From an uncultured bacterium (GTDB lineage: Bacteria > Patescibacteriota > Minisyncoccia > Phycocordibacterales > Phycocordibacteraceae), in the NCBI GenBank assembly GCA_963851445.1, contig CAWKPH010000002.1, forward strand, positions 25,716-89,715: a stretch of DNA of 64,000 bases, in the 5' to 3' direction. Below are positions 2,471-51,132 of the stretch, piece by piece. The notes below the pieces were generated by a model. It saw nothing but the letters and a program-made list of their open reading frames with translations. It made no database searches and had not been told where the DNA came from. Made by a program: the position numbers and the translations under genes. Within the stretch, counting starts at the first letter, position 1; each line of letters opens with the position of its first letter.

Positions 2471-3517
2471 ATGGCTCATCAGTCGCTCTATCGTGCGTAT
2501 CGTCCTTCAAACTTTAAGGAGGTTGTAGGACAGGAACAAATAACTAAGGCGCTTATTGAGCAGATGGCTTCTGAAAAGGTAGGACATGCTTATCTCTTCG
2601 CCGGTTCTCGCGGCCTTGGCAAAACCTCAATTGCGCGAATATTCGCAAAAGAACTTGGCACCACTGAGCGTGACTTATATGAAATTGATGCTGCTTCCAA
2701 TAACAGTGTCGACGACATCCGTGCACTTACAGAAAATGTCTACACGCTCCCATTTGAGTCGAAATATAAAGTCTATATTCTCGATGAGGCGCACATGCTT
2801 TCGAAGGGCGCATGGAATGCATTTTTAAAGACTCTCGAAGAACCACCTGCGCACGTAATATTCATTCTTGCGACGACCGAGCTGTCGCGTATTCCTGAAA
2901 CTGTTCAATCGCGCTGCCAGGTATATGAATTCAAGAAACCATCACGTATGGGTCTTGCAAAATTAGTTGTCGAAGTTGCAAAGAAAGAAGGATATACGAT
3001 TGAATCCTCAGCAGCAGATCTTATCGCAATTCTTTCAGAAGGTTCTTATCGCGACTCACTTTCAGTACTTGAGAGAATATTTGGCTCAGTGCAGGGAAAG
3101 AAAATTACGCGTGAAGATGCAGAACTTGCGACCGGCGCGCCTAAGCACGAACTCATAGAAAAATTCGTTACCGCACTATCAGAGGAGAATGCAAGCAGCG
3201 CACTTGGTGTCCTTCGTCGTGCTACGAATGAAAGTATTGACATGCCGCTCTATCTTTCGCTCGTTTTAGAGTATGTTCGCACCATATTGTTGGTTCGATT
3301 TGCCTCTGAACTCCGTAAGGAATTAGAGGATGAGCTTGGCACTGATGAATATGCTGAAGTGGAGAAGCTAGCAATGGCTAAGGATTCGAAGCTAACGCAC
3401 GAGACACTCCGTGTCCTACTCGATGCCACCGAACGGATGCGTTTTTCGCCGATTCCATCTCTATCACTTGAACTTGCCGTCTTTGAGCTTATCGGGCAGG
3501 ATGGAGAAAGCGCATGA
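2471..3517 (+). CDS. dnaX: DNA polymerase III subunit gamma/tau (short form)
   Basis: 'YRPSNFKEVVGQEQ…FAGSRGLGKTSIARIFAKEL…ILDEAHML' are the clamp-loader AAA+ Walker A/B and N-terminal motifs. Confidence 0.85.
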   Translation: MAHQSLYRAYRPSNFKEVVGQEQITKALIEQMASEKVGHAYLFAGSRGLGKTSIARIFAKELGTTERDLYEIDAASNNSVDDIRALTENVYTLPFESKYKVYILDEAHMLSKGAWNAFLKTLEEPPAHVIFILATTELSRIPETVQSRCQVYEFKKPSRMGLAKLVVEVAKKEGYTIESSAADLIAILSEGSYRDSLSVLERIFGSVQGKKITREDAELATGAPKHELIEKFVTALSEENASSALGVLRRATNESIDMPLYLSLVLEYVRTILLVRFASELRKELEDELGTDEYAEVEKLAMAKDSKLTHETLRVLLDATERMRFSPIPSLSLELAVFELIGQDGESA

Positions 3518-3559
3518 GAGTGCCGTCTGTGCTCTGCAAGTGCGCTAAAATGAATATAT

Positions 3560-3631
3560 TGGGAGATCGTCTAACGGTAGGACAGCGGCCTTTGAAGCCG
3601 TGAATCTAGGTTCGATCCCTAGTCTCCCAGC
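3560..3631 (+). tRNA. tRNA-Gln (anticodon UUG)
   Basis: Cloverleaf folded by hand: acceptor TGGGAGA/TCTCCCA with a U1:A72 pair and G73, D-stem GTC/GAC, anticodon stem GCGGC/GCCGT, loop CTTTGAA (anticodon TTG), T-arm CTAGG-TTCGATC-CCTAG. Confidence 0.8.
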
Positions 3632-4149
3632 AGACTTGGACAGGTCGCCAAATCGGCCATCAGCAGGAACGGTTTCGCGGCGCAGACGTTGAGTTTTCCA
3701 GCCGCCATCGTGGGGTTTGATGCAACGGTTTTCAGAATCATCCGCTTTTCGTCGTCGGGAGCGACGGAAAACCAATCCGCGGCCTGGTTGCAAAACGAAA
3801 TCAGCTGGCGCAAGGGTTTGATGCAATCCTCCGACTCCGCAGGCCCAGCAAGCTTTTCGGCAAATCGTCGCTGCTCTGCCTGAAGGGTCTCTCGCTGCAG
3901 GATAAATTCCTCATCAGTGAGTAGGTTGCGCAGCCGTAGGCTGGTGAGCTCACGGAGTTGTCCCTGAACGCTCTTGAGCGCCTTTTCCGCCAACGCGCGG
4001 CCGGCGACTAGTTCCGCCTTCAACTGGTCGTTGAGAAGTTCGAGGGTCGACGTCATCCAGTCATCGATACCCGGATCGGGGCGTACGCCGCCACAGGGCG
4101 CACCATTCTGCAGATCGACGCTGACACGCCAGTTGTTCTCTTTCGTTTG
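3619..4149 (-). pseudogene. C-terminal fragment of a large serine recombinase-like protein (coiled-coil region), GC-rich, no intact catalytic N-terminus
   Basis: Minus-strand frame is open 4149→3619. The translation 'LKAELVAGRALAEKALKSVQGQLRELTSLRLRNLLTDEEFILQRETLQAEQRRFAEKL' resembles the C-terminal coiled-coil of large serine recombinases. The stop overlaps the 3' end of tRNA-Gln, and the DNA is visibly GC-rich compared with the flanking sequence. Confidence 0.35.
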
Positions 4150-4851
4150 GCGGCCGACTCAGGAGAGTCGCCGATACAATCAATTGCAGTAGCCGACGAC
4201 GGCACCGTCTTTTTCTCCACCGAAAACCGGGTCTTTGCTCTGCTGGATGGGGGAGCGTTGTCGATCGTCAACAACAACGGGGGCGAGTTGCGGATCCGCG
4301 AGGGATACCTCTACGTGCTCAATCCAAAGGGCCCGCTCCTATTCCGGGTCAGTCCCACGTCGAAACAAATCTTCGCCGGAGGAGGTCAATGAAAATCGTC
4401 AGATTGCGACTGAGATCGGGACCAATTCAGCAGATTGAAGCGGGACCTCCGCCTCTCGAATCAAGCGGGTCGATTCTGCGTCAGGAGACGATCGAACCTG
4501 TCGACCATCGCCCACGCGAGTCTTTCGCGGAATGACATTGCTGCTTCTCTATCCTCGTCGTACGCGACACCAACAGACAGGTATTTTCTCACCGAGTCTC
4601 TGAGCGCGGTGTCCCCGACAAGGATTGCCGCGACATCATCTATAGATAGTGAATTGACGTCGTGTCTGTCCCGATCTGACTCCCCAGACACCGACGCAAA
4701 CCAGCTATCTATAGCAGCTTTGACGTCATGCCGCCTGCCCAGGGGATCATTGTTAATAATATTTGGAGAAGTATTCCTTTCGTAACTTTGCATTTGCCTA
4801 GAATGCTAACACGATTTTCAGTCTTCGGCGCCATCGATCGTGTGGACAGCA

Positions 4852-5493
4852 TTATCGCAAGCCAACATTATTTTTCCGATCGTTCGCCTTATCAAGGACG
4901 TCGCGCCGCGCCGCCGCGCTGCGGTCGCCAGTGTCCAGACCGCGCTGCCTATGATCGCCATTAATCGCAACGCGAATTGACCGAAGCGCCTCGGCGTAAA
5001 GTCCTCGACGTGCCTCATCCTGCGCCCACCGAAATTGTTCATAAGCATCCGTGGCGGAGGGATTCCTACCAATAACTACAAGATTGTTTATACCTTCATC
5101 CAACACCCCAAGACGTTCGGATAGATCACTGAAACCCCATTCCAAAGCCGAAACGATTTCGCGGCTTGAATCGCGGATCTCGGACTCGATACCGGAGAGG
5201 CCTTTGCGAACTGTGTTGTCAAGGTCGGTGATGCTCTCACGCACCTCCAGGTTTGTCCGCGCGACATCACTGAGGCGGCCCGAAAGCAATTCGTTTCCAT
5301 CGGCCATGTTTTTGGAAACCTGGAGTCCGATTTCCTTTAGATCATCTATGCTAGCCACAAGCTCTCTTGTTTGACGGTCGGCGATAAAGCCAATACCGCG
5401 CATCTGAAAGCGGTACCTCATCCATTGGGGATAGGTGAAATTAGTTTTGACGTTGTATTCGTAGTTGTACCTGAGGTCGTCAATAAAAGACAT
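4852..5493 (-). CDS. hypothetical protein (213 aa) within the GC-shifted island
   Basis: Intact ORF preceded by GGGAG about 8 nt upstream of the ATG on the minus strand. No family recognised. Confidence 0.35.
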   Translation of the reverse strand: MSFIDDLRYNYEYNVKTNFTYPQWMRYRFQMRGIGFIADRQTRELVASIDDLKEIGLQVSKNMADGNELLSGRLSDVARTNLEVRESITDLDNTVRKGLSGIESEIRDSSREIVSALEWGFSDLSERLGVLDEGINNLVVIGRNPSATDAYEQFRWAQDEARRGLYAEALRSIRVAINGDHRQRGLDTGDRSAAARRDVLDKANDRKNNVGLR

Positions 5494-34209: not shown

Positions 34210-35457
34210 ATGGGTGCTATTTCGTTTTCGATTGAATCCGTAGGTCATTCATATGATTTGCAGAATAAAAATGCTCGCACAGGCGTTCTTACAACGCCTC
34301 ATGGCGCCATTAAAACACCCGCCTTTGTTCCTGTGGCTACAAAGGCTAGCGTTAAAGGCATATTGCCCCACCAGCTTCTACGTCTAGGGGTACAGGTTGT
34401 GCTCGCAAATACCTACCATCTATACCTACAGCCAGGCGAGGAAATAATTAAGGAATCGAAAACTCTTGGAGAGTTTATGGGTTGGCATGGTCCGACAATG
34501 ACCGACTCTGGTGGTTTCCAAGTATTTTCGCTCGGTGCTGCGTTCGGCCGTAATATTACGAAAATTGCAAAAGGTGAGGAATTACCAAATGATTCCGTAG
34601 AGAACAATCGAATATCAATTTATGACGAGGATGTGCAGACCAAGCATGGTCAGCTCGCAGTAATTGATGATGAGGGCGTAACATTCACATCGCACATCGA
34701 CGGATCACTTCATCGCTTTACACCTGAGCGTTCGATAGAAATTCAACACGCGCTCGGCGCCGATATGTTCTTTGCATTTGATGAGTGCACAGCTCCTACA
34801 GAATCCTATGCCTATCAAAAAGAGGCGATGGATCGTACTCACCGTTGGGCACTTCGCTCGCTTAAGGCTCACCGACAGAATCTTGATGCAAACCGGACAC
34901 AGGCGATCTTCGGTATTGTGCAAGGAGGTCGGTATGAAGATCTACGAAGTGAGAGTGCAAAAGAGATCGCCTCGATGGACTTTGATGGATTTGGCATAGG
35001 AGGTTCGTTCAGCAAAGAGGATATGCAGGGCGCACTCCAAGCAGCGATTAAAGAGCTCCCAGAAGAAAAACCGAGACATTTTCTTGGTATTGGTGAACCA
35101 GGTGACCTACTCACCGGGATCGCGCAGGGAATCGATCTCTTTGACTGTGTAGCGCCGACTCGACTTGGCAGGCACGGAACTATTTACACAAAACGAGGCA
35201 CGATTAACCTTCTTAACGAAAAATTCAAAAATGATCTGGGTCGACTAGACGAGGAGACAATCGTACCTGGAACTGAGGGTTTTAGTCGGGCCTATGTCAG
35301 TCATCTTTTGCGCTCAAAGGAAATGCTCGGTCAAGTCATTGCCTCTATACATAATCTCGGCTTCGTTGTTCAGCTTGTGGGCCATGCGCGCCAAGCATTA
35401 ATCGAAAATCGCTTTGAGCAGTATCGGGAGAAATTCATTCAAGAGTACTATGTCTAG
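34210..35457 (+). CDS. tgt: queuine tRNA-ribosyltransferase
   Basis: 'TPHGAIKTPAFVPVATKASVKG…VVLANTYHLYLQPG' and the later zinc-site region match Tgt. Confidence 0.85.
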   Translation: MGAISFSIESVGHSYDLQNKNARTGVLTTPHGAIKTPAFVPVATKASVKGILPHQLLRLGVQVVLANTYHLYLQPGEEIIKESKTLGEFMGWHGPTMTDSGGFQVFSLGAAFGRNITKIAKGEELPNDSVENNRISIYDEDVQTKHGQLAVIDDEGVTFTSHIDGSLHRFTPERSIEIQHALGADMFFAFDECTAPTESYAYQKEAMDRTHRWALRSLKAHRQNLDANRTQAIFGIVQGGRYEDLRSESAKEIASMDFDGFGIGGSFSKEDMQGALQAAIKELPEEKPRHFLGIGEPGDLLTGIAQGIDLFDCVAPTRLGRHGTIYTKRGTINLLNEKFKNDLGRLDEETIVPGTEGFSRAYVSHLLRSKEMLGQVIASIHNLGFVVQLVGHARQALIENRFEQYREKFIQEYYV

Positions 35458-39742: not shown

Positions 39743-42538
39743 ATGCCAACAAAAAAAAGTACCGATTCGGTAGCAAAACACACAGATAGGGTGGAGAAAA
39801 AATCTAGAGAGCAACGAGGCGCTCTCAATTCGCACCACCAGGCCATGGGGGCGGAGTGGATTACCGTACGAGGAGCACGTACGCATAACCTTAAGAATAT
39901 TGACGTCAAACTGCCTCGGGGTGTCATGACGGTTATTACAGGTCTTTCAGGTTCCGGCAAATCCTCGCTCGCGTTTGATACCATTTTTGCCGAAGGACAG
40001 CGCCGCTATGTAGAATCACTCTCCGCCTACGCACGTCAATTTCTTAATCAGATGCAGAAACCGGACGTAGATGAAATCACCGGTCTCTCTCCCGCTATTT
40101 CTATAGATCAAAAAAGTCGTTCCAATAACCCGCGCTCAACGGTTGCTACCGTCACCGAGATATATGATTACCTTCGAGTGCTCTATGCACGTGCGGGTCA
40201 ACCCTACTGCGTGAATCACGATGTTCCGATTTCGAAGCTTTCAAAGGAGGAAATGATTCAAATGGTGTGGGATCGCGTCCACGCTAAAACCAAAGAGAAC
40301 CAGAATCCTGATCCAGCCGCTCAGGTTATGGGTGTTGAGTTTGACCGCACACAGGTACTCATATATGCGCCAATCGTTGTTGGCCGCAAGGGCGAATACT
40401 ACCAACTCCTCTACGATCTTCTCGGCAAGGGTTTTGAGCGCGTCGTAATTGATGGAAAGACACAGTCTCTACGTGACCGAGCTGTTCTCGACCGCAATAA
40501 GCGTCATGATATTGATGCGCTGGTCGACGGCATTTTTGTTTCCGAATTCATGCGTTCTCCTGATGCGGCACGTGAGCGTCTCTCCGAGGCTCTTGAAATC
40601 GCACTCAAAGAGTCGGATGGACTTGTAAAAATTAGACACGCCGATGGCACACTTGAAACCCTCTCTTCGAAATTTATATGCCCCGAGGACGGCGCATCGT
40701 TTCCTGAAGTAGAGCCGCGGCTGTTCTCATTCAACAGTCCGTATGGCGCCTGCCCACAGTGTAACGGTCTTGGCACCAAGTCTATTTTCTCTGACGAACC
40801 GTGCCCTGTTTGTAATGGACTGCGCCTACGCCCTGAAGCTCTGCGGGTATATTTGAAAGGCAAAAATAGTGGGAAGCCTCGCGAGAAGGTAAAGGGTAAA
40901 AGAAAAGATGCAGATGAAGAGCCTTCAGCAGAAAACAATAACGGGGGTCTTGGTAAGAATATCGTTAACTTTACGTCGCTTTCCATACGCGATGCAAAAA
41001 TATTCCTTGAGGAACTTGATCTTTCTGATTTCAGAATGGAAATTGCGGCGCCCATCATTCGCGAGATAGCAAACCGTCTTGATTTCATGCTTAACGTAGG
41101 ACTGGATTACCTCACCCTCAATCGCACCGCCTCAACACTTTCGGGGGGAGAATCACAGCGCATTCGCCTTGCCTCTCAACTTGGTACGGGCCTTGTAGGC
41201 GCCTTGTACGTTCTGGACGAGCCAACAATTGGTCTTCACCAACGCGATAACGATCGCCTCATCAAAACACTCCTTATTCTTAAAGAGCTTGGCAATACGA
41301 TTCTTGTTGTCGAGCATGACGAGGACACTATTTACTCCTCTGATTACATTGTTGACATTGGTCCTGGAGCTGGGGTTCATGGTGGCCAGGTAGTTGCGCA
41401 TGGATGGCTTGATGAGCTTCTCACGGCACCTATAAACGAGAGCGATTCGGTAACTCTAAGTTATTTGCGCGGCGAGAAGGAAATTGAAGTTCCCCAGGAG
41501 CGGCGAACCAGCGAAAAAGGCTCTATTAAAGTTCGTGGCGCCACACTACATAATCTAAAGAATCAGAATATCGATATACCACTGGGCAAGCTTGTGTGTA
41601 TTACAGGTGTATCGGGTTCAGGTAAATCTACATTTTTATATGACATTCTTCATAAGAATGTTTCAGCACGGCTAAGTAAGCGTGAATCAGAAGTGGTGAA
41701 TGCAGCTTCAATGACAGGCACTGAATACATCGGGCGCGTGGTGCTTATCGATCAGTCAGCAATCGGCCGCACGCCACGCTCAAACCCTGCAACCTATACG
41801 GGAGCCATGACCCATATCCGTGATATTCTCGCGGCAAGTTCAGAAGCAAGAGCGCGCGGCTGGAAACCAGGACGCTTCTCATTTAACGTTCCAGGGGGGC
41901 GCTGCGAGGCGTGTCAGGGGAACGGCATGATAGCAGTCGAAATGCACTTTCTACCAACCGTATATGTCACCTGTGACGTTTGTAATGGGACTCGATTCAT
42001 GCGTGAGACTCTTGAGGTCACGTATCGAGGCAAGAACGTTTATGACATTTTGCAGATGACCGTAGAGGAGGCAGAACTTTTCTTTAGAGATATTCCCGCT
42101 ATTGGCGAACGCCTTGATTCGCTTAACTCAACAGGACTCCAGTATCTTACGCTCGGACAAAGCGCGACAACGCTCTCTGGCGGCGAGGCACAGCGCGTGA
42201 AGATTTCCTCAGAGCTATATCGTCCGATTACGATGAAGACGCTTTATCTCCTTGATGAGCCGACCGTGGGACTCCATTATGAGGATGTGCGTAAATTAAT
42301 TGAGATACTTCAGGAGCTCGTGCGCCGGGGGAATACGGTTGTCGTTATCGAACACAACCTTGATGTCATCAAAAGCTCTGACTATCTTATCGATTTCGGG
42401 CCCGAAGGAGGTATACACGGTGGTCAAGTAATCGCAAAGGGAACTCCCGAAGAGGTTGCGCAGAATCCAAAATCATACACGGGCGAATATTTAGCGAAAG
42501 TTCTTAAGAAGTCTAAGGTGAAAAAGTCTAAGGATTGA
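39743..42538 (+). CDS. uvrA: excinuclease ABC subunit A
   Basis: 'ITVRGARTHNLKNIDVKLPRGVMTVITGLSGSGKSSLAFDTIFAEGQRRYVESLSAYARQF', two ABC modules and zinc-finger CxxC pairs. The start may instead be ATG 39845 (MGAEWITVRGAR). Confidence 0.9.
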   Translation: MPTKKSTDSVAKHTDRVEKKSREQRGALNSHHQAMGAEWITVRGARTHNLKNIDVKLPRGVMTVITGLSGSGKSSLAFDTIFAEGQRRYVESLSAYARQFLNQMQKPDVDEITGLSPAISIDQKSRSNNPRSTVATVTEIYDYLRVLYARAGQPYCVNHDVPISKLSKEEMIQMVWDRVHAKTKENQNPDPAAQVMGVEFDRTQVLIYAPIVVGRKGEYYQLLYDLLGKGFERVVIDGKTQSLRDRAVLDRNKRHDIDALVDGIFVSEFMRSPDAARERLSEALEIALKESDGLVKIRHADGTLETLSSKFICPEDGASFPEVEPRLFSFNSPYGACPQCNGLGTKSIFSDEPCPVCNGLRLRPEALRVYLKGKNSGKPREKVKGKRKDADEEPSAENNNGGLGKNIVNFTSLSIRDAKIFLEELDLSDFRMEIAAPIIREIANRLDFMLNVGLDYLTLNRTASTLSGGESQRIRLASQLGTGLVGALYVLDEPTIGLHQRDNDRLIKTLLILKELGNTILVVEHDEDTIYSSDYIVDIGPGAGVHGGQVVAHGWLDELLTAPINESDSVTLSYLRGEKEIEVPQERRTSEKGSIKVRGATLHNLKNQNIDIPLGKLVCITGVSGSGKSTFLYDILHKNVSARLSKRESEVVNAASMTGTEYIGRVVLIDQSAIGRTPRSNPATYTGAMTHIRDILAASSEARARGWKPGRFSFNVPGGRCEACQGNGMIAVEMHFLPTVYVTCDVCNGTRFMRETLEVTYRGKNVYDILQMTVEEAELFFRDIPAIGERLDSLNSTGLQYLTLGQSATTLSGGEAQRVKISSELYRPITMKTLYLLDEPTVGLHYEDVRKLIEILQELVRRGNTVVVIEHNLDVIKSSDYLIDFGPEGGIHGGQVIAKGTPEEVAQNPKSYTGEYLAKVLKKSKVKKSKD

Positions 42539-42581: not shown

Positions 42582-43904
42582 ATGCAAAAGAGTGATATAG
42601 CAAAATTTGAGCTCCCTGAATTACCGGGTGTATATATATTCACCCAGGGCAAGGGTCGTGCAAAAAAAGTGCTCTACGTAGGGAAGGCCACCTCACTTCG
42701 TGACCGAGTGCGGTCCTATTTTGACATTGATCTTATTTCCACACGCGGGCCTCGAATTGTGGACATGGTAACAAAGGCAGACGGACTCAGGTATGAGACT
42801 ACCCCAACAGTGCTCGAAGCGCTCGTACGCGAGGCGGCCTTGATTCGTGAGTATCATCCGCCAGCGAATGCTGAGGGTAAGGATGATAGAACCTTTCTCT
42901 ACGCAGTCGTTACTGACGAGGAGATTCCGCGCGTCCTTGCTATACGAGGGAGCGACATTAATTTCGATACAAAAGTTGCGCAGGGTATACGATATCGGGA
43001 GGCGTTTGGACCATTCCCCTCTGGATATCAGCTCCGTGAAGGACTCCGGCTTATTCGCCGCATATTTCCCTTCTACGATACTCCAAAGCCTGTGGGGAGT
43101 AAGGGTAAGCATCAGGAGGCAGATATTGAATTTAATCGACAAATTGGTCAGTATCCAAAAGACATACACAAAAAGAGCTATTTACGTTCAATACGAAACG
43201 TTTGTTTGTTCCTTTCGGGCCATGTGAAGAAATTGCGTGAGACTCTTACGAAGGAAATGAAGTTAGCGGCTAAGAAAGAAGAATTTGAATTTGCAGCACA
43301 AATCAGAAGGGAACTCTTTGCGCTCGATCATATCCAAGACGTATCACTTATACGCGAAGACCGTGACAAGCATACGATGGGGCCACGAATCGAAGCCTAC
43401 GACACAGCGCACATCTCGGGCACAAGCGCTATTGGCGTTATGACCGTTATTCAGGATGGAACGCCACAAAAAAAGGAATATCGTACTTTTCGTATACAAG
43501 GTACAAAGCAGAAGAGTTTGCGTAAATCTGTTAATTTAAAATCAAAAGACTCTGATAAGGGGCTTAGGATAGAAGTGCGTCGTATGAATGATGACATTGC
43601 ATCTCTCAAGGAGATTCTTTCGCGGCGTATGGGCCATCCTGAATGGCCAATGCCGCGTGTGATAGTTGTTGATGGAGGAAAGACACATAAGAAAGCTGCG
43701 GAAAGTGTTCTAGAGGAACTTGGTATTCATATTCCTATAGTGGCGGTTGTAAAAGATGAGCGCCATAGACCACGAGAGGTAATTGGAGGCATACGTGCAG
43801 GCATCACTGATGCTGACGCGGTCCTCGCTAACGCAGAAGCCCATAGATTCTCGCTTACTCGGCACCGCCAGGCGCGCAAGAAAAGTCTTCATCGAGACAC
43901 TTGA
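42582..43904 (+). CDS. uvrC: excinuclease ABC subunit C, short form lacking the C-terminal (HhH)2 domain
   Basis: GIY-YIG 'LPELPGVYIFTQGKGRAKKVLYVGKATSLRDRVRSYF' and an RNase-H-like endonuclease region 'VIVVDGGKTHKKAA…DERHRPRE…EAHRFSLTRHRQARKKS'. At 440 aa there is no HhH tail. Confidence 0.75.
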   Translation: MQKSDIAKFELPELPGVYIFTQGKGRAKKVLYVGKATSLRDRVRSYFDIDLISTRGPRIVDMVTKADGLRYETTPTVLEALVREAALIREYHPPANAEGKDDRTFLYAVVTDEEIPRVLAIRGSDINFDTKVAQGIRYREAFGPFPSGYQLREGLRLIRRIFPFYDTPKPVGSKGKHQEADIEFNRQIGQYPKDIHKKSYLRSIRNVCLFLSGHVKKLRETLTKEMKLAAKKEEFEFAAQIRRELFALDHIQDVSLIREDRDKHTMGPRIEAYDTAHISGTSAIGVMTVIQDGTPQKKEYRTFRIQGTKQKSLRKSVNLKSKDSDKGLRIEVRRMNDDIASLKEILSRRMGHPEWPMPRVIVVDGGKTHKKAAESVLEELGIHIPIVAVVKDERHRPREVIGGIRAGITDADAVLANAEAHRFSLTRHRQARKKSLHRDT

Positions 43905-43929
43905 CAAAATATACTCTACATGATAGAGT
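43901..43929 (+). promoter_or_regulatory. sigma70-like promoter TTGACA-17-TAGAGT (extended TG) driving a non-coding transcript
   Basis: TTGACA at 43901–43906 overlaps the uvrC stop. TGATAGAGT at 43921–43929. The predicted TSS is about 6–8 nt before the GGGGCTG at 43943. Confidence 0.5.
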
Positions 43930-43936
43930 ATATTTG

Positions 43937-44201
43937 GATATAGGGGCTGGTTCGAATTCGCCCCCAACCGCAACAGGCGCCAGGAGAAAGGACCCAATGC
44001 TTCGCGAGCGAAGTAGCACCTAAAATAGCAGCGCCTCGTTTGCGCAAATTTGTCTCATAGGGGATTACGGCAGATCCTGAGATACCCGCACACGCAAAGA
44101 TCAAATCAATGCGGTCCGAGGTACCACGACCTAGCCAACACCCAACAGCGAGACACAGGGCCGGGAGTCTTCAATGACATAATCCCGGCCCTTTCGCTTT
44201 T
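43937..44201 (+). ncRNA. candidate structured non-coding RNA (~265 nt), class unassigned; partial resemblance to RNase P RNA conserved stretches
   Basis: A promoter and an intrinsic terminator (GGGCCGGGA…TCCCGGCCC + TTTCGCTTTT, 44158–44201) bracket a region with no credible ORF. Internal stem-loops (GGGGC…GCCCC; CTTCG-CGAG-CGAAG). Stretches 'AGGAGAAAGGACCC', 'CATAGGGGATTACGGCAG' and 'CCACGACCTAGCCAACACCCAACAGCGAGACA' resemble rnpB CR-I, the 'AUAGGGCA…ACGGCAGG' region and 'CCACGACCAGUGCAACAGAGAGCA', but the P15–P18/CR-II/III regions are absent. Confidence 0.4.
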
Positions 44202-44252
44202 CCATACTATATTGATTCAAATACTTACGGTTGCATCTGTTATACTTTTGCC

Positions 44253-45212
44253 ATGAATGGCACGGTCGTCGGGGTTCTTCGAGGGGGTCCATCCCGGGAG
44301 CATGAAATATCTATTCTTTCGGGCCATGCAATCGTGGCAAATTTGTCCCGCGAAAGGTTCATTGTTAAGGATATTTATATTGATAAACAGGGCCAATGGT
44401 TCGAACGTGGTAAGCAGAGTACGCCGGTTGATATTTTGCGTACCGTTGATGTGGTGGTGATTGCGCTTCATGGCGAGTACGGGGAAGATGGCGAAGTCCA
44501 GAAGCTTCTAGAGCGTCTCGGTATTCCCTACACGGGCTCAGATTCCCTTGCCTCCTACCTTGCTATGCACAAAGTACTTGCAAAGGAGCGTGCCAAAGAG
44601 GCCGGACTCAAAACTCCTAAATATTATTTAGTAGAGCCAGGAGCGGACCTTGAATCAGTTGCCTATAACCTTACGCGTACATTCCACCAGCCACTCGTGG
44701 TAAAGCCAGTGAAGTGGGGGTCATCTGTGGGTGTATCAATTGCAGGTGGTTATGCGCAGATTCATCAAGCGATTGCGTCACTTCTAGATGAAGCAGAAGC
44801 AGTACTTGTGGAGGAATACATACGGGGAACCGAGGCGAGTGCGGCGGTTGTGGAGGGCTTACGTGGTGAAGAATTATACGGACTACCGCCAATCGAGATA
44901 ATCCCCCCTACCAATGATTTTTTCTCGTACGATGCCAAATACAACGGCAAGAGCAAGGAAATATGTCCTGCTCGATTTTCAAAGGAGACAATGGAGGAGC
45001 TTGTAGAAAGCGCTCGTACCATGCATCGCTCGCTTGGACTCCGGCATTACTCTCGTTCTGATTTCATAGTCACACCGCATGCTACGTATTACCTCGAAAC
45101 TAATACACTCCCTGGTCTCACCAAGGAGTCACTTCTCCCAAAGTCGCTAACGGCCGTTGGAGTCTCATTTTCAGATTTCCTTACACACATCGTCGATCTC
45201 GCGCTTGGGTAG
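44253..45212 (+). CDS. ddl: D-alanine--D-alanine ligase
   Basis: 'VVVIALHGEYGEDGEVQKLLERLGIPYTGS' and the ATP-grasp C-terminal 'DFIVTP…YLETNTLPGLT'. Confidence 0.85.
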   Translation: MNGTVVGVLRGGPSREHEISILSGHAIVANLSRERFIVKDIYIDKQGQWFERGKQSTPVDILRTVDVVVIALHGEYGEDGEVQKLLERLGIPYTGSDSLASYLAMHKVLAKERAKEAGLKTPKYYLVEPGADLESVAYNLTRTFHQPLVVKPVKWGSSVGVSIAGGYAQIHQAIASLLDEAEAVLVEEYIRGTEASAAVVEGLRGEELYGLPPIEIIPPTNDFFSYDAKYNGKSKEICPARFSKETMEELVESARTMHRSLGLRHYSRSDFIVTPHATYYLETNTLPGLTKESLLPKSLTAVGVSFSDFLTHIVDLALG

Positions 45213-45229
45213 ACCATGCACTTTTCACT

Positions 45230-45568
45230 ATGAATGATCTATCTCAAAGAAAATGCATTCCATGCGGAACACACACCAAAGCATTTACTCGCGAGGAGGC
45301 GGAAAAAATGCAATCAGAAGTAGCAAACTGGACACTGGACGATGCTGCGAGAGTTATTTCTAAGAGCTACGCATTCAAAAATTTTGCTGAAGCTATGGCT
45401 GCAGCGAATATGATTGGGGACTTAGCTGAGCGTGAAGGTCATCATCCTGATCTCCATGTCTCATGGGGAAAACTTGTGGTTGATCTCTCGACGCATTCCA
45501 TCGGTGGCCTTACTGTAAATGACTTTATATTGGCAGCGAAGATTGATGCACTTGCTCTAGATAAATAA
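45230..45568 (+). CDS. phhB: pterin-4a-carbinolamine dehydratase (PCD/DCoH)
   Basis: 'EGHHPDLHVSWGKLVVDLSTHSIGGLTVNDFILAAKID' is the PCD signature. Confidence 0.75.
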   Translation: MNDLSQRKCIPCGTHTKAFTREEAEKMQSEVANWTLDDAARVISKSYAFKNFAEAMAAANMIGDLAEREGHHPDLHVSWGKLVVDLSTHSIGGLTVNDFILAAKIDALALDK

Positions 45569-45691: not shown

Positions 45692-45776
45692 TAGCGACAG
45701 AATACTTGACAAAAAGTAGTACAATGCTATTGTTTATTAGCATTCGCCACTGTTCCTTGTCATAAGGGCTACAACT

Positions 45777-46172
45777 ATGATCCGCGTTACTCAACAAAGG
45801 CCGCCCGCGCACATCCAGCGGCACGGCGAGCACGACTGCACCACGATTGTTCACATCCATGAGCACACTCGCTCATTCGGCCTCAAACGGGCACAATTTC
45901 TTGGTCACAGACAAGTGGGCATCATCAAAGCGACGCTCAATGCCTTGACCGCCATTCCCTGCGAGGGTGAACTTAAGATTACCGCCACGAGAAAATCTGG
46001 GGCATCCGCCATCGGCGACATCTACACCTGGGATCCACATTCTTTGCGCGTCGCCCAGGAAGCCGTGTCACTCATCCGGGATGATCTTCGAATTTTGATG
46101 TCTCTTGACCTCGGCGAGCTCCAGCTGCAGATCAGTTGTTCCCTCGAAAGAAAACTCAAGGTCGCCGCCTAG
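45777..46172 (+). CDS. hypothetical protein (131 aa), GC-richer than neighbours, immediately downstream of tRNA-Ala
   Basis: ORF with an upstream TTGACA-16-TATTGT and a GC-rich terminator downstream. No family recognised. Confidence 0.3.
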   Translation: MIRVTQQRPPAHIQRHGEHDCTTIVHIHEHTRSFGLKRAQFLGHRQVGIIKATLNALTAIPCEGELKITATRKSGASAIGDIYTWDPHSLRVAQEAVSLIRDDLRILMSLDLGELQLQISCSLERKLKVAA

Positions 46173-46192
46173 GACTAAACACCCTGACGTGC

Positions 46193-46224
46193 AAAGCCGC
46201 CCAGGCTCTCGGGCGGCTTTTTGT
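46193..46224 (+). terminator. rho-independent terminator
   Basis: AAGCCGCCC-AGGCTCTC-GGGCGGCTT followed by TTTTG. Confidence 0.6.
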
Positions 46225-46359
46225 TCTCACTTTCCCTCAAGTCCATGGGTTCGAGGATTTGGCAACTTAATTGAAAGAATTTTATTCCCATCATTTGCGA
46301 GAGTTTTCCTAAAGAGTTCCAAGGAAGCCCTTAGACGTTCGCCTGCTATACTACCCCAT

Positions 46360-47820
46360 ATGCTAAAACGTGAGGAAGAGAAACTCCTTGACTTCATACA
46401 CACCGAGCACAAGAAAGGCTACACCAAGAAGGAGATACGAGAAGCACTTATAGCTAATGACTTCTCTCCTAAGGACATAGACCCTTCTCTCAACAAGGTA
46501 TTTAAAAGAAAGAGAAGACACCATACACAAAAACTCCTCGTACCCCTCACACTCCTTCTCTTTGTCCTCATAGCAGGCTGGTGGCTCTACACCCACCATG
46601 CGTCATCCAGTGACACACAGAATACTCTGGGATCTACACTTGCTACCCCTGAGGGGAATACTGGATCTTCTGGTCCTACAGAAGAATCAATCACAACGCA
46701 ACCAATCGGCTTCGCAAGCCTTGATGGCGGTACAACTGGTGGAAATCCAAACAATATATGTCATGTGAGCTCCATGACTGAAGCGGCTCTTGCTACCTGT
46801 GCTGAAGCATCCAATTCAAGCACTGTGGTTTTTGACACTCCCGGTACGATTGTCCTCACCTCACCTATAGACATAACCTCAAATAAGACGATAGAAGGGC
46901 CAGTGACAATAGAAGGACAATCCAATCTTTTTCAAATACGAGGACAGAGTAACATCATCATACGAAATATCTATTTTGAAAATCTTCCAGGACTTGTTGT
47001 TCCTCCCTCGATTAGTGGGCTGTCAGCAGCCAGTACTTGTCCAGATACTTCTACATATCTGACGAAGGGTCTCGGAGGCTCTAATCTTGAAGGATGCGGA
47101 AACGAAATACGCATATTGGGTGGAGTTACTTCCGATAGTCAGAATATATGGATAGATCACGATTCCTTTAGAGCTTGCGGTGATAAATGTATCGCGGTTG
47201 GTGTTGGAACCAGCGGTCTAGATCCTTCTACTGGAAAATATTACAGTGGAACTTTAGTATCAATATCAAATAGCATTTTTAAAGACAGTTGGTTTGCTGT
47301 CGCTATTGATACTGCTACTGGAGGACCAATGGGCGCCATCCCAATCAATGAACAACCAAACTCCATGGTAACGCTGTACGGTAATTTATTTAGTGAAGTA
47401 AATAGACGTAGTCCCCGTGTCTCCGGTGCCGGTTCTTGGGCACACGTCTTTAACAACGTCATTCAATACTGGGGTGGATTTGACAGCAGTACGGGTGATG
47501 GATATGGATTCGGACCTTCTTCAAATGATTCAGCGCAATTGTTACTAGAAGATAACTACCTTCGTGCGTGGCCAAGTCCAAATGCCTGTCAAGAAGCAGA
47601 CGATCTTATCAACCAAAGATGCAAGGTAACCGATCCAATTCAATCTAAAGGAGTCCCTGCAGGTTACATACGAGCAACAAACAACTTTTTAGCAAACAGT
47701 GCTACCGATCAGGAAAACGGTCCCTCAGTGGTATTCACTCCGCCCTACAGTTACAGTCCGCTCGACCCATTAACCACACTCAATTCAGTTATCGCTAATG
47801 CTGGAGTTATTACAAATTGA
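46360..47820 (+). CDS. membrane-anchored right-handed beta-helix protein of the pectate lyase (PL1-like) family
   Basis: TM helix 'LLVPLTLLLFVLIAGWWLY'. 'IWIDHDSF', 'NRRSPRVSGAGSWAHVFNNV' (the R-P-R…HV-NN pectate-lyase motif) and repeated 'I.G..N..I.N' beta-helix rungs. Start taken at ATG 46360; the ORF track's 46105 extension overlaps the upstream terminator. Confidence 0.6.
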   Translation: MLKREEEKLLDFIHTEHKKGYTKKEIREALIANDFSPKDIDPSLNKVFKRKRRHHTQKLLVPLTLLLFVLIAGWWLYTHHASSSDTQNTLGSTLATPEGNTGSSGPTEESITTQPIGFASLDGGTTGGNPNNICHVSSMTEAALATCAEASNSSTVVFDTPGTIVLTSPIDITSNKTIEGPVTIEGQSNLFQIRGQSNIIIRNIYFENLPGLVVPPSISGLSAASTCPDTSTYLTKGLGGSNLEGCGNEIRILGGVTSDSQNIWIDHDSFRACGDKCIAVGVGTSGLDPSTGKYYSGTLVSISNSIFKDSWFAVAIDTATGGPMGAIPINEQPNSMVTLYGNLFSEVNRRSPRVSGAGSWAHVFNNVIQYWGGFDSSTGDGYGFGPSSNDSAQLLLEDNYLRAWPSPNACQEADDLINQRCKVTDPIQSKGVPAGYIRATNNFLANSATDQENGPSVVFTPPYSYSPLDPLTTLNSVIANAGVITN

Positions 47821-50118: not shown

Positions 50119-51132
50119 CTAACTACCAGGATAGTACTTCTTTAGAAGCGCGACATGCTCCGCATAGGTATCGGAACAATGGAATCTGCCATAGGAGTCA
50201 TGGAAATAGTAGAGACAGGAAGTTTGCACAGGATTAAGTGCTGCAAGTACTGCCGCTACTGATGGTTCAGCAATAGGCCCAGGTGGAAGCCCTGGATTCA
50301 TGTAGGTGTTGTAAGGAGACTTAATGTATTTATCTTTTGGTAGTACTTCCTGCCACCAATTTCCCTCTTTATTCTCACCCATTGCGTATTGAAGCGTTGC
50401 ATCAATCTGTAGATTCATGTTGTCGAATAGTCGGTTCCAGATAATGCCCGAGATAATGCGCATATCAGTTGGACCTGCGGCTTCACGCTCAAGAAGCGAG
50501 GCCACGATCAAAGTCTCGTTGAGAGGCACAAGAGACGCTGTTGTTGGACTATAGTGGTCAGCAACTGTCTCGTCGAAGCGTATGCCCATTAAAGCTGCGA
50601 CGTTGGAAGGAGTCATTGAATCATCAACGACATACGTTCCAGGAGCAAACATCCCGTCTGTGATTCCTGGTGTCTGTGCATCTACCGCTGCAAGGAATTG
50701 CTTTTGTTGCGTTGTATTCCAATTGAGTGCCCGTGTAAGCTGTGAAAGTATTTCTTCTTTGCGATATCCTGGAAGGACGGTAATTAGATGACCATCTGCG
50801 GCAGCAAGTGATTGATATAAGCTTGTATTATCAATGAGCGCAGCGATCTGAATCAAAACCTCTCTCACATCCCCTACAGAGGCTGTAAGAGTATTGTTTT
50901 GAGTCTGCTCATTGAAAAAAGCATCAGCCTTTGGATTATCGACAATGCTTTTTGTCGCCGGATCTACTGAGACAGGAAAGACTGCAACAGTGGTCGGGGA
51001 ATTTGCGGGCTGCAATAGCGACATGCTTTCCAAATGAATGTGTGCAATCTCAATTTGCGGCAGGATAAAGGTTGTACAGCCTCCAATAATGCAAAGGAGG
51101 GCAACTACGGTAAGAATTCGCGCCCTATCCAT
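50119..51132 (-). CDS. mltG: endolytic murein transglycosylase MltG/YceG family
   Basis: TM anchor, 'IVASLLEREA', 'ISGIIWNRL…LQIDATLQY', 'SPYNTYMNPGLPPGPIAEPS', 'LYYFHDSYGRFHCSDTYAEH'. Start taken at the internal Met (MDRARIL). The ORF track extends to 51231. Confidence 0.75.
   Translation of the reverse strand: MDRARILTVVALLCIIGGCTTFILPQIEIAHIHLESMSLLQPANSPTTVAVFPVSVDPATKSIVDNPKADAFFNEQTQNNTLTASVGDVREVLIQIAALIDNTSLYQSLAAADGHLITVLPGYRKEEILSQLTRALNWNTTQQKQFLAAVDAQTPGITDGMFAPGTYVVDDSMTPSNVAALMGIRFDETVADHYSPTTASLVPLNETLIVASLLEREAAGPTDMRIISGIIWNRLFDNMNLQIDATLQYAMGENKEGNWWQEVLPKDKYIKSPYNTYMNPGLPPGPIAEPSVAAVLAALNPVQTSCLYYFHDSYGRFHCSDTYAEHVALLKKYYPGS

Follow-up and report, generated by a model that had tools for sequence, protein, structure and literature searches.

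Some small RNAs (sRNAs) of enterobacteria are embedded in the 3' untranslated regions (3'-UTRs) of mRNAs (type I, for example DapZ and MicL); they are transcribed from a promoter located within the preceding gene or at its end, and one terminator serves both the mRNA and the sRNA. Dual-function sRNAs (SgrS/SgrT, RNAIII/hld and SR1/SR1P) carry an internal short open reading frame (ORF) led by a Shine-Dalgarno (SD) sequence, and leader-peptide attenuators (trpL, hisL and ermK-type) place a very short ORF and a terminator in front of a biosynthetic gene. To our knowledge, almost nothing is known about regulatory RNAs in the uncultured Patescibacteria (Candidate Phyla Radiation, CPR) with their tiny genomes, nor do we know of any Hfq-type context in this group; a literature search found no paper on leaderless genes, SD usage or sRNAs in Patescibacteria, and none on ddl leader peptides. 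Here we analyzed a 64,000-nucleotide (nt) stretch of contig CAWKPH010000002.1, hereafter the window, and within it the gap between uvrC and ddl, where a reading made from the letters of the DNA (the original prediction) had placed a non-coding transcript. Judged by its sequence, the source is an uncultured Patescibacteria bacterium of the Parcubacteria (Kaiserbacteria/Paceibacterota). Our preferred interpretation, to which we give a probability of roughly 45%, is that the gap holds a stand-alone, fast-evolving gene for a small RNA, nested in the 3' region of uvrC.

The unit is a well-delimited transcription unit, as predicted from its promoter and terminator signals. The sigma-70-type promoter matches the consensus at 10 of 12 positions and has an extended -10 element (TTGACA at 43901-43906, a 17-nt spacer, TG at 43921-43922 and TAGAGT at 43924-43929), with the uvrC stop codon TGA (43902-43904) lying inside the -35 hexamer. 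Such signals are rare: only seven sites of at least 10/12 were found in the window (both strands, 128 kb scanned), and a perfect TTGACA together with TG occurs at two sites only, 43901 and 45706 (both strands). The promoter is covered by an inverted repeat whose arms (43907-43918 and 43924-43935) span the spacer, the -10 element and the positions up to -1. This palindrome is the only one of its kind in the window, none is expected in shuffled sequences, and folded as RNA it reaches -11.7 kcal/mol (z = -4.8); weaker inverted repeats can be read at the same position in three related loci (L001, L006 and L094). It is probably the operator of a repressor, as we infer, or, as a possible alternative, a hairpin at the 3' end of the uvrC mRNA. 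At the other end of the unit, the arm AGGGCCGGGA (44157-44166) pairs perfectly with TCCCGGCCCT (44183-44192) and is followed by TTTCGCTTTT up to position 44201. This intrinsic terminator has a free energy of -24.4 kcal/mol (z = -4.9), a stability reached by none of 200 shuffles, and it was overlooked by the consensus terminator scan only owing to the 8-nt loop limit of that scan.

The promoter and the strong terminator put forward by the original prediction are therefore both confirmed, and so is its promoter-to-terminator anatomy with a transcript of about 265 nt. The 5' end was misplaced at GGGGCUG, the predicted start (G43936/43937) being 6-7 nt upstream, and three features had escaped notice: the SD-led ORF of 8 codons, the perfect 12-bp inverted repeat that covers the promoter, and the variability of the slot. 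Including its terminator, the transcript has a minimum free energy (MFE) of -93.2 kcal/mol (z = -4.15); most of this signal comes from the terminator, the body without it reaching z = -2.3 (5/200 shuffles). Both the MFE and the centroid structures consist of four separate hairpins in a chain, and the sole body domain clearly beyond chance stability is the hairpin at 44051-44155. The absence of a credible long ORF also held up on inspection: the 68-aa ORF at 44050-44256 starts with TTG, lacks an SD, extends across both the terminator and the ddl promoter and stops 3 nt past the ddl ATG, a search of 1.84 billion proteins returned for it only multi-stretch compositional matches to proteins of 579-2353 aa, and none of the five local ORFs, this one included, has a Pfam match.

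The only SD-preceded ORF in the transcript has eight codons (43997-44023) and encodes MLRERSST. It includes the CUUCG-CGAG-CGAAG hairpin, which had been recognized correctly and lies at 44000-44013. According to the predicted fold, ribosome-binding site and start codon are both accessible, since AGGAGAAA is unpaired with a probability of 0.8-1.0 and the A of the AUG, which lies at the base of a small hairpin, with a probability of 1.0. SD-like motifs precede 5 of the 56 window genes against a background of 8.8%, which is to say at background frequency, whereas a TAnnnT hexamer stands 5-9 nt before the start in 19/56 genes versus 6.4% of random positions; leaderless-type starts include those at 2471, 10343, 10961, 23823, 26670, 35968, 39300, 44253 and 46360. 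The source genome looks, from these sequence counts, largely leaderless and SD-less. We count an exposed SD in a genome that hardly uses SDs, and a structured domain (44051-44155) more stable than its shuffles, in favor of a small-RNA gene.

The gene downstream follows the leaderless pattern. Of 173 related loci, 161 have TATA[CA]T directly upstream of ddl; TG stands before the hexamer in 118, the ATG comes 6-8 nt after it in 140, and this pattern holds for uvrC-ddl gaps from 0 to 3000 nt. The conservation of an extended -10 element whatever the gap length implies that the ddl mRNA is leaderless and transcribed from its own promoter, and the window RNA, on this sequence comparison, is no ddl leader. 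The original prediction had named alignment of the region to a ddl 5' leader in relatives as the result that would speak against it; this check came out negative, ddl having its own promoter in the relatives.

Table 1. Features of the uvrC-ddl unit and its borders, with window coordinates, strand and basis of each assignment
Feature	Position	Strand	Basis
uvrC, 440 aa, short form	42582..43904	+	ORF list; Pfam UvrC_RNaseH_dom 3.3e-28, UVR, GIY-YIG
Sigma-70-type promoter TTGACA-17-TG-n-TAGAGT (predicted)	43901..43929	+	Consensus scan 10/12 + extended -10
Inverted repeat AAATATACTCTA / TAGAGTATATTT, 12-nt arms, 5-nt gap	43907..43935	.	Repeat search, 100% complementary
Predicted primary transcript, ~265 nt, A+C-rich	43936..44201	+	Start placed 7-8 nt past the -10; end at U tract
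5' hairpin GGGGCUGG-UUCGAAU-UCGCCCCC, T-loop-like 7-nt loop	43943..43965	+	Sequence reading, repeat search
Shine-Dalgarno-like AGGAGAAAGGA in internal loop	43982..43992	+	Predicted unpaired
Micro-ORF ATG CTT CGC GAG CGA AGT AGC ACC TAA = MLRERSST*	43997..44023	+	Translation
Long irregular hairpin, 34 pairs, 105 nt	44051..44155	+	-31.2 kcal/mol, z = -3.6, 0/200 shuffles
Intrinsic terminator, 10-bp G+C-rich stem AGGGCCGGGA/TCCCGGCCCT, 16-nt loop, UUUCGCUUUU	44157..44201	+	Repeat search, folding
ddl extended -10 promoter TGtTATACT, ATG 6 nt past hexamer (predicted)	44238..44255	+	Sequence; bounds the cassette, outside the RNA

We compared the slot among relatives. Of 160 loci that were fetched, 124 keep the uvrC-ddl synteny; the gap is shorter than 150 nt in about 70 of these, and about 50 have an insert of 190-3100 nt. 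The non-coding-looking inserts have a good promoter, an interior of 200-450 nt, an SD with an ORF of 6-19 codons and a strong terminator, and in the coding ones a leader and a GGAGG SD precede the gene for a small protein of 43-147 aa. In a neighbour-joining tree built from Ddl, cassettes of the non-coding type are concentrated in the subclade of the window, where about 18 lineages with and about 14 without are interleaved; the micro-ORF cassettes belong mainly to one subclade, the coding cassettes mostly to another. The TGA stop of uvrC lies inside TTGACA in 14 cassette-bearing loci, the window and 13 relatives. The cassettes also have in common a terminator of the GGGCCGG...CCGGCCCUUUC type; the form GGGCCGG...CCGGCC(C)UUU occurs seven times in 26 kb of slot cassettes, and elsewhere in 2.1 Mb the pattern is met essentially only in non-terminator sequence; the terminator tails of the window and of locus L033 have 22 of 24 nt in common. 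Every cassette that we read has kept a good promoter, which argues against dead DNA in such deletion-prone small genomes. K-mer counting over the slot cassettes recovered as common motifs only pieces of the ddl promoter and of the terminator, and in all-versus-all blastn and tblastx comparisons most cassettes, including that of the window, are singletons. On sequence grounds the pattern suggests an old cassette that has kept its ends, with an interior that turns over and is often deleted; alternatively, cassettes may have been gained repeatedly and independently by a common mechanism. One candidate trace of insertion, an 11-nt direct repeat CA(T/G)CGAGACAC flanking 43901-44156, was rejected as a target-site duplication, given that about 0.8 chance repeats are expected in 450 nt (an estimate) and that a duplication would also demand a UvrC tail lacking in the relatives.

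The micro-ORFs of the slot have a feature in common at the peptide level. Across 22 non-coding slot cassettes there are 21 ORFs of 4-20 codons that begin with ATG behind an SD, and seven of them encode R-[C/R/S]-[S/T], versus 3/121 control short ORFs from the same sequences (Fisher p = 5e-5, or 1.4e-4 once obvious homologues are collapsed, for a pattern defined post hoc). These peptides include MYRIELRCS, MWRIRLRRS, MDFVFKLRCSVR, MRTFHFVRSS..., MIRMRRGRCSGF and the MLRERSST of the window. In the motif, CGN codons specify Arg, and Ser has codons of the UCN as well as the AGY type; this mixture hints at selection at the amino-acid level and not at the nucleotide level. The macrolide-type arrest motif '+x+' (R/K-x-R/K) was considered as well and set aside, its frequency of 6/21 against 20/121 not being significant. 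The sequence GGGAGG-N4-9-ATG occurs 47 times in 2.1 Mb, with about 10 of these occurrences within 26 kb of slot cassettes; strong SDs are, by this count, a mark of the slot cassettes. A second micro-ORF recurs in the slot, with the products MTNKDN*, MANKDN*, VVNKDN*, MTTKDYS*, MVTKDV..., MGNKAY* and MTSEDY* (loci L028 at 3719, L042, L033, L051 at 3820, L055 at 3758, L134 at 2712, and L007), and the 12-mer GGAGGCAGAATG is present, exact, in four otherwise unalignable loci and nowhere else in 2.1 Mb.

If the gap does hold a small-RNA gene, the promoter, with the uvrC stop in its -35 hexamer and an operator-like palindrome over its spacer and -10 element, would start an RNA at about position 43936, and the terminator would end it at about 44201; the same terminator would stop uvrC read-through and insulate the leaderless ddl promoter downstream. 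The RNA would be built of a 5' hairpin, an internal loop displaying the SD, the eight-codon ORF, the 105-nt hairpin and the terminator. It would be the local member of a positional cassette class, in a subclade of the Paceibacteria/Kaiserbacteria, that keeps its ends and usually an SD-led micro-ORF and whose interiors have diverged or been lost. Its action would most likely be that of a trans-acting base-pairing riboregulator, with a possible second role as the mRNA of a micro-peptide. Searching for a target, we found that positions 44006-44022 can form an uninterrupted 17-bp helix (13 Watson-Crick and four G-U pairs) with positions +2..+18 of the mRNA of tgt, encoding queuine tRNA-ribosyltransferase (34211-34227). 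The tgt mRNA is probably leaderless, for a -10-like hexamer, TAGCCT, stands 6 nt ahead of the ATG of the gene. Over 56 gene starts a helix of this quality was matched by 1/200 shuffled RNAs; the significance of the pairing can be estimated at p ~0.03-0.07, which makes tgt a hypothesis and a weak lead. A complementarity of 44126-44137 to ddl +6..+17 (10/12) was discarded as being, by estimate, at chance level. The broadest version of this interpretation is that one subclade of the Paceibacteria/Kaiserbacteria keeps, between uvrC and ddl, an ancient and so far undescribed family of regulatory RNAs that diversify rapidly, with a stop-fused promoter, a family-specific terminator and an SD-led micro-ORF for a hydrophobic-Arg-(Cys/Ser)-Ser peptide in otherwise SD-less genomes, acting by pairing with the 5' ends of leaderless mRNAs (here tgt), through the nascent micro-peptide, or both; taken as a whole, we regard it as quite improbable. 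Our confidence in any specific function is low.

Several results weigh against a small-RNA gene of this kind. Blastn (word 7), nhmmer and tblastx searches of 160 related loci gave no homologue of the RNA interior, which leaves no material for a covariation comparison, and a covariance model of the hairpin at 44047-44158 recovered only itself from 752 kb of related DNA; counting all related uvrC-ddl loci, about 180, neither a sequence nor a structure homologue was found. The sole other copy of the RNA, in the Logan assembly of ERR11630394, is 100% identical. Of the ten closest relatives that we looked at (Ddl identity 73-76%), nine lack a cassette (L162, L164, L166, L167, L168, L170, L172, L176 and L178, with gaps of roughly 16-110 nt) and the tenth (L174/L175) has an unrelated one, so that the window unit could be a recent gain or neutral. 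Of the small hairpins, the 5' one, which the original prediction had rightly recognized, is a GGGGC...GCCCC pairing at 43943-43965, but its imperfect 8-bp stem is no more stable than shuffles (z = -1.1), and the stability of the SD-bearing hairpin is likewise at chance level. A leave-one-out nucleotide hidden Markov model (HMM) of the SD/micro-ORF region of the relatives misses the window site, and the homology of the window micro-ORF to the others amounts to a short peptide pattern defined post hoc. As to the candidate target, three helices window-wide score as high as that with tgt, and the overall duplex energy is ordinary (113/200 shuffles). The RNA has no paralogue within the window; phage records gave no match to it, and viral contigs none to its 5' hairpin.

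The unrelated cassette of L174/L175 (Ddl 73% identical) deserves a separate description. In the same slot this locus has a degenerate tRNA-like element followed by a second promoter and RNA (1777-1845 and 1864-1975). The element combines an acceptor stem with a perfect T arm, GAGGG-TTCGAAT-CCCTC, and lacks a proper anticodon arm; Rfam scores it as mascRNA-like at 18.2 bits and as tRNA-Sec at 15.6 bits, and ARAGORN reports nothing. The second promoter, TTGACG-17-TATACT, precedes a terminated RNA of about 85 nt, whose CAGAATACAGAG is the exact complement of CTCTGTATTCTG in the tRNA-like element. T-arm-like hairpins were found among the slot cassettes only in this element and at the 5' end of the window RNA. 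The two units are alike in their slot, in a promoter overlapping the uvrC stop and in the GGTTCGAAT of the hairpin loop. They differ in that L174 has a full acceptor stem and a 5-bp T arm and the window an imperfect 8-bp hairpin with no acceptor partner, and a comparison of the two cassettes showed no further similarity.

Other explanations of the unit have to be set against a small-RNA gene. The same arrangement is seen in the intact small genes of relatives, with a promoter at or near the uvrC stop, a leader of 40-100 nt, GGAGG, an ORF of 43-147 aa and a terminator, and the unit might thus be a decayed small-protein cassette that retains its promoter, leader, SD, ATG and terminator but whose ORF has shrunk to eight codons, so that the RNA has no function. 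The orphan interior of the window unit and the nearest relatives, which lost or never had a cassette, would fit such decay. We nevertheless hold it to be unlikely: tblastx of the window cassette against all loci gave chance matches only, no ORF can be restored in any frame, and a perfect 24-nt palindrome with a near-consensus promoter would be unexpected in decaying DNA; moreover, the 105-nt hairpin beats 200/200 shuffles, the micro-ORF and coding cassettes are concentrated in different subclades, and the micro-ORFs have a peptide motif in common. This last point, with its amino-acid-level-looking conservation (7/21 vs 3/121), also speaks for a micro-peptide gene, whose product would be MLRERSST or the act of translating it, the remainder of the RNA being a stabilizing or regulatory UTR. 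The recurrence of SD-led micro-ORFs in the slot fits this proposal, as do the SD AGGAGAAAGGA, predicted to be unpaired, and the position of the AUG at the base of a small hairpin. However, the motif is post hoc, the window peptide has only R-S-S in common with the others, the nucleotide HMM misses the window site, no stand-alone activity is obvious for a hydrophilic peptide of 8 aa, and about 180 nt of the transcript would be left unaccounted for; we consider this proposal rather unlikely.

That the unit lies directly upstream of ddl in the same orientation raises the further explanation of a cis-acting leader or attenuator, in which the terminator would be overridden and transcription would read through into ddl under the control of a leader peptide (the micro-ORF) or of an aptamer in the body. 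A short SD-led ORF (43982-44023) followed by a terminator (44157-44201) is indeed the classical attenuator layout, and read-through transcripts would still be translatable, as most window genes need no SD. It is nonetheless very improbable, because in nearly all relatives, whether they carry a cassette or not, an extended -10 element belonging to ddl itself is followed by the ATG after 6-8 nt, and because the terminator fold was unchanged in all four settings in which 30-50 nt around the micro-ORF were forced to be unpaired in imitation of a ribosome. Further points against it are the self-contained 105-nt hairpin between ORF and terminator, the long and perfect terminator stem, the lack of any riboswitch or T-box match at E<=10 on 43800-44350, and the ordinary protein genes with terminators of their own that occupy the same slot in relatives. 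The original prediction had put forward yet another explanation, a divergent housekeeping RNA, namely a lineage-specific reduced RNase P RNA, with tmRNA (transfer-messenger RNA), 6S RNA and signal recognition particle (SRP) RNA as families to be checked. The 5' GGGGCUG and the UUCGAAU loop are reminiscent of tmRNA or tRNA, AGGAGAAAGGACC can be read as loosely resembling the GAGGAAAGUCC of RNase P conserved region I (CR-I), and the size falls within the range of 6S and large SRP RNAs. Nevertheless, a cmscan of 43800-44350 against Rfam at E<=10 with permissive filters returned only two chance-level matches, both on the minus strand (RT-17 and c-di-GMP-I-GGC), and none to RNase P, tmRNA, 6S or SRP models; the RNase P models (RF00010, RF00011, RF00373 and related) were also silent over the window at gathering score. 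CR-I and CR-IV are the universally conserved strands of RNase P RNA that form P4, and neither GAGGAAAGUCCGG nor ACAGAAnnCGGCUUA, their respective sequences, occurs in 43901-44252 at <=3 mismatches, so the reported rnpB-like islands could not be reproduced. ARAGORN finds no tmRNA in the region, standard or permuted; as for a tag frame, which in tmRNA lacks both SD and start codon and closes with hydrophobic residues, the sole short frame is SD- and ATG-led and ends in ...RSST, and the 3' end is a terminator hairpin, which leaves the supposed tmRNA-like character of the 5' end without support. The 6S model (RF00013) gave no match, and the MFE and centroid structures are strings of hairpins, neither a rod with a central bubble closed between 5' and 3' ends nor a fold closed by P1 and P4. 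Since the RNA is lacking at the same locus in the nearest relatives, is unalignable in others and has no similarity in about 1 Mb of related DNA, it does not look like an essential universal RNA, and a housekeeping role is almost certainly the wrong explanation. With its own promoter and terminator, no credible long ORF and no known family, the unit suits instead the label of a novel sRNA, which the original prediction had kept as its fallback.

Beyond the unit itself, Rfam at gathering score detects three tRNAs only in the whole window. In 14 related loci at gathering score, and in seven cassette loci plus L174 at E<=10, the only slot matches are the weak tRNA-like ones in L174. A 90-nt tRNA-Gly (GCC) is called by ARAGORN at 50215-50304, where the Rfam tRNA model is silent at gathering score; it could be an intron-containing tRNA, a tRNA with a long variable arm or a false call. 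The gene order around the gap is uvrA (39743-42538), uvrC (42582-43904), the gap, ddl (44253-45212), a gene for pterin-4a-carbinolamine dehydratase (45230-45568) and tRNA-Ala. The best relatives of Ddl in species-representative genomes and metagenomes are at most 72% identical, all bearing names of Kaiserbacteria/Paceibacterota type, and the best non-self match in a search of 5.8 billion proteins has 76% identity. UvrC has GIY-YIG, UVR and RNase H-like endonuclease domains and no Pfam match for the C-terminal helix-hairpin-helix region, a short form that is kept across the relatives (413-440 aa). Directly after tRNA-Ala lies the only other perfect TTGACA with TG of the window (45706, TTGACA-16-TGcTATTGT), followed by an orphan 131-aa ORF without Pfam match (45777-46172), a terminator at about 46193-46225 and then a leaderless pectate-lyase-like gene (TGCTATACT...ATG at 46360); this 45706-46225 unit has the same architecture as the uvrC-ddl unit.

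The slots of the relatives are varied in their contents. Small protein genes, each with its own promoter, SD and terminator, are found in L013, L052, L030, L062, L065, L118, L135, L043, L053, L063, L083, L102, L105 and L117, and their products include Ndk-like proteins of 135-139 aa (L013/L052), a zinc-ribbon-like peptide of 43 aa, a membrane peptide of 62 aa and, in seven loci, members of a Cys-rich family (106-147 aa). Locus L005 has two tandem cassettes (3626-4000) and a duplicated ddl promoter region, the first terminator being followed by a further GCTATACT...ATG, and in L167 (30-110) the direct repeat GTAAGAAACTTTGGTATAC occurs twice upstream of ddl; these duplications may be traces of cassette entry or exit. 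LOOT RNA (RF03000) scores above its gathering threshold a few kb from ddl in L051 (7281-7398, minus strand) and L011 (6971-7104, plus strand), with 69.9 and 61.5 bits. Serine recombinase (Resolvase/Recombinase) genes lie just downstream of ddl and the dehydratase gene in three of the closest relatives (L166 at 3997-5007, L168 at 3150-4808 and L169 at 3150-4782), and partial duplicates of tRNA 3' halves in L110 (4209), L125/L126 (4416) and L141 (4467). Together, the recombinases and the tRNA duplicates suggest integrative elements that target neighbouring tRNA genes.

The unit provides a tangible candidate for what would be the first class of sRNAs or micro-ORFs in Patescibacteria, and the series of empty slot, RNA cassette and small-protein cassette offers a route to study how such genes are born and lost. 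The window element itself, an orphan, is for now a lead; it is also a correction, being neither an RNase P RNA nor a tmRNA.

Compared with the known systems, the unit agrees with RNase P RNA (RF00010/RF00011) and tmRNA (RF00023) in a size of the same order, in a purine-rich GGAGAAAGG and in its GGGGCUG...UUCGAAU hairpin; it differs in failing every defining test that was run and in not being conserved among relatives. With leader-peptide attenuators it has in common a promoter, an SD, a very short ORF and a terminator, co-oriented upstream of a biosynthetic gene. In contrast to them, it forms no alternative antiterminator in the constrained folds, has no run of regulatory codons, places 135 nt with an autonomous hairpin between stop codon and terminator, and is followed by a gene with a conserved leaderless promoter of its own. 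The likeness to dual-function sRNAs lies in a structured RNA of regulatory size that contains a short SD-led ORF and ends in a Rho-independent terminator; their known peptides have 26-43 aa against the eight codons of the window RNA, whose translation and base pairing are both predictions. The type I sRNAs embedded in enterobacterial 3'-UTRs correspond to the unit in the overlap of the promoter with the end of the preceding gene, in one terminator for mRNA and sRNA, in a length of a few hundred nt or less and in the lack of a long ORF. From these the window RNA differs in having neither a conserved seed nor a verified target and in an interior that is unconserved even between genera, and it adds to their design an exposed SD and a micro-ORF.

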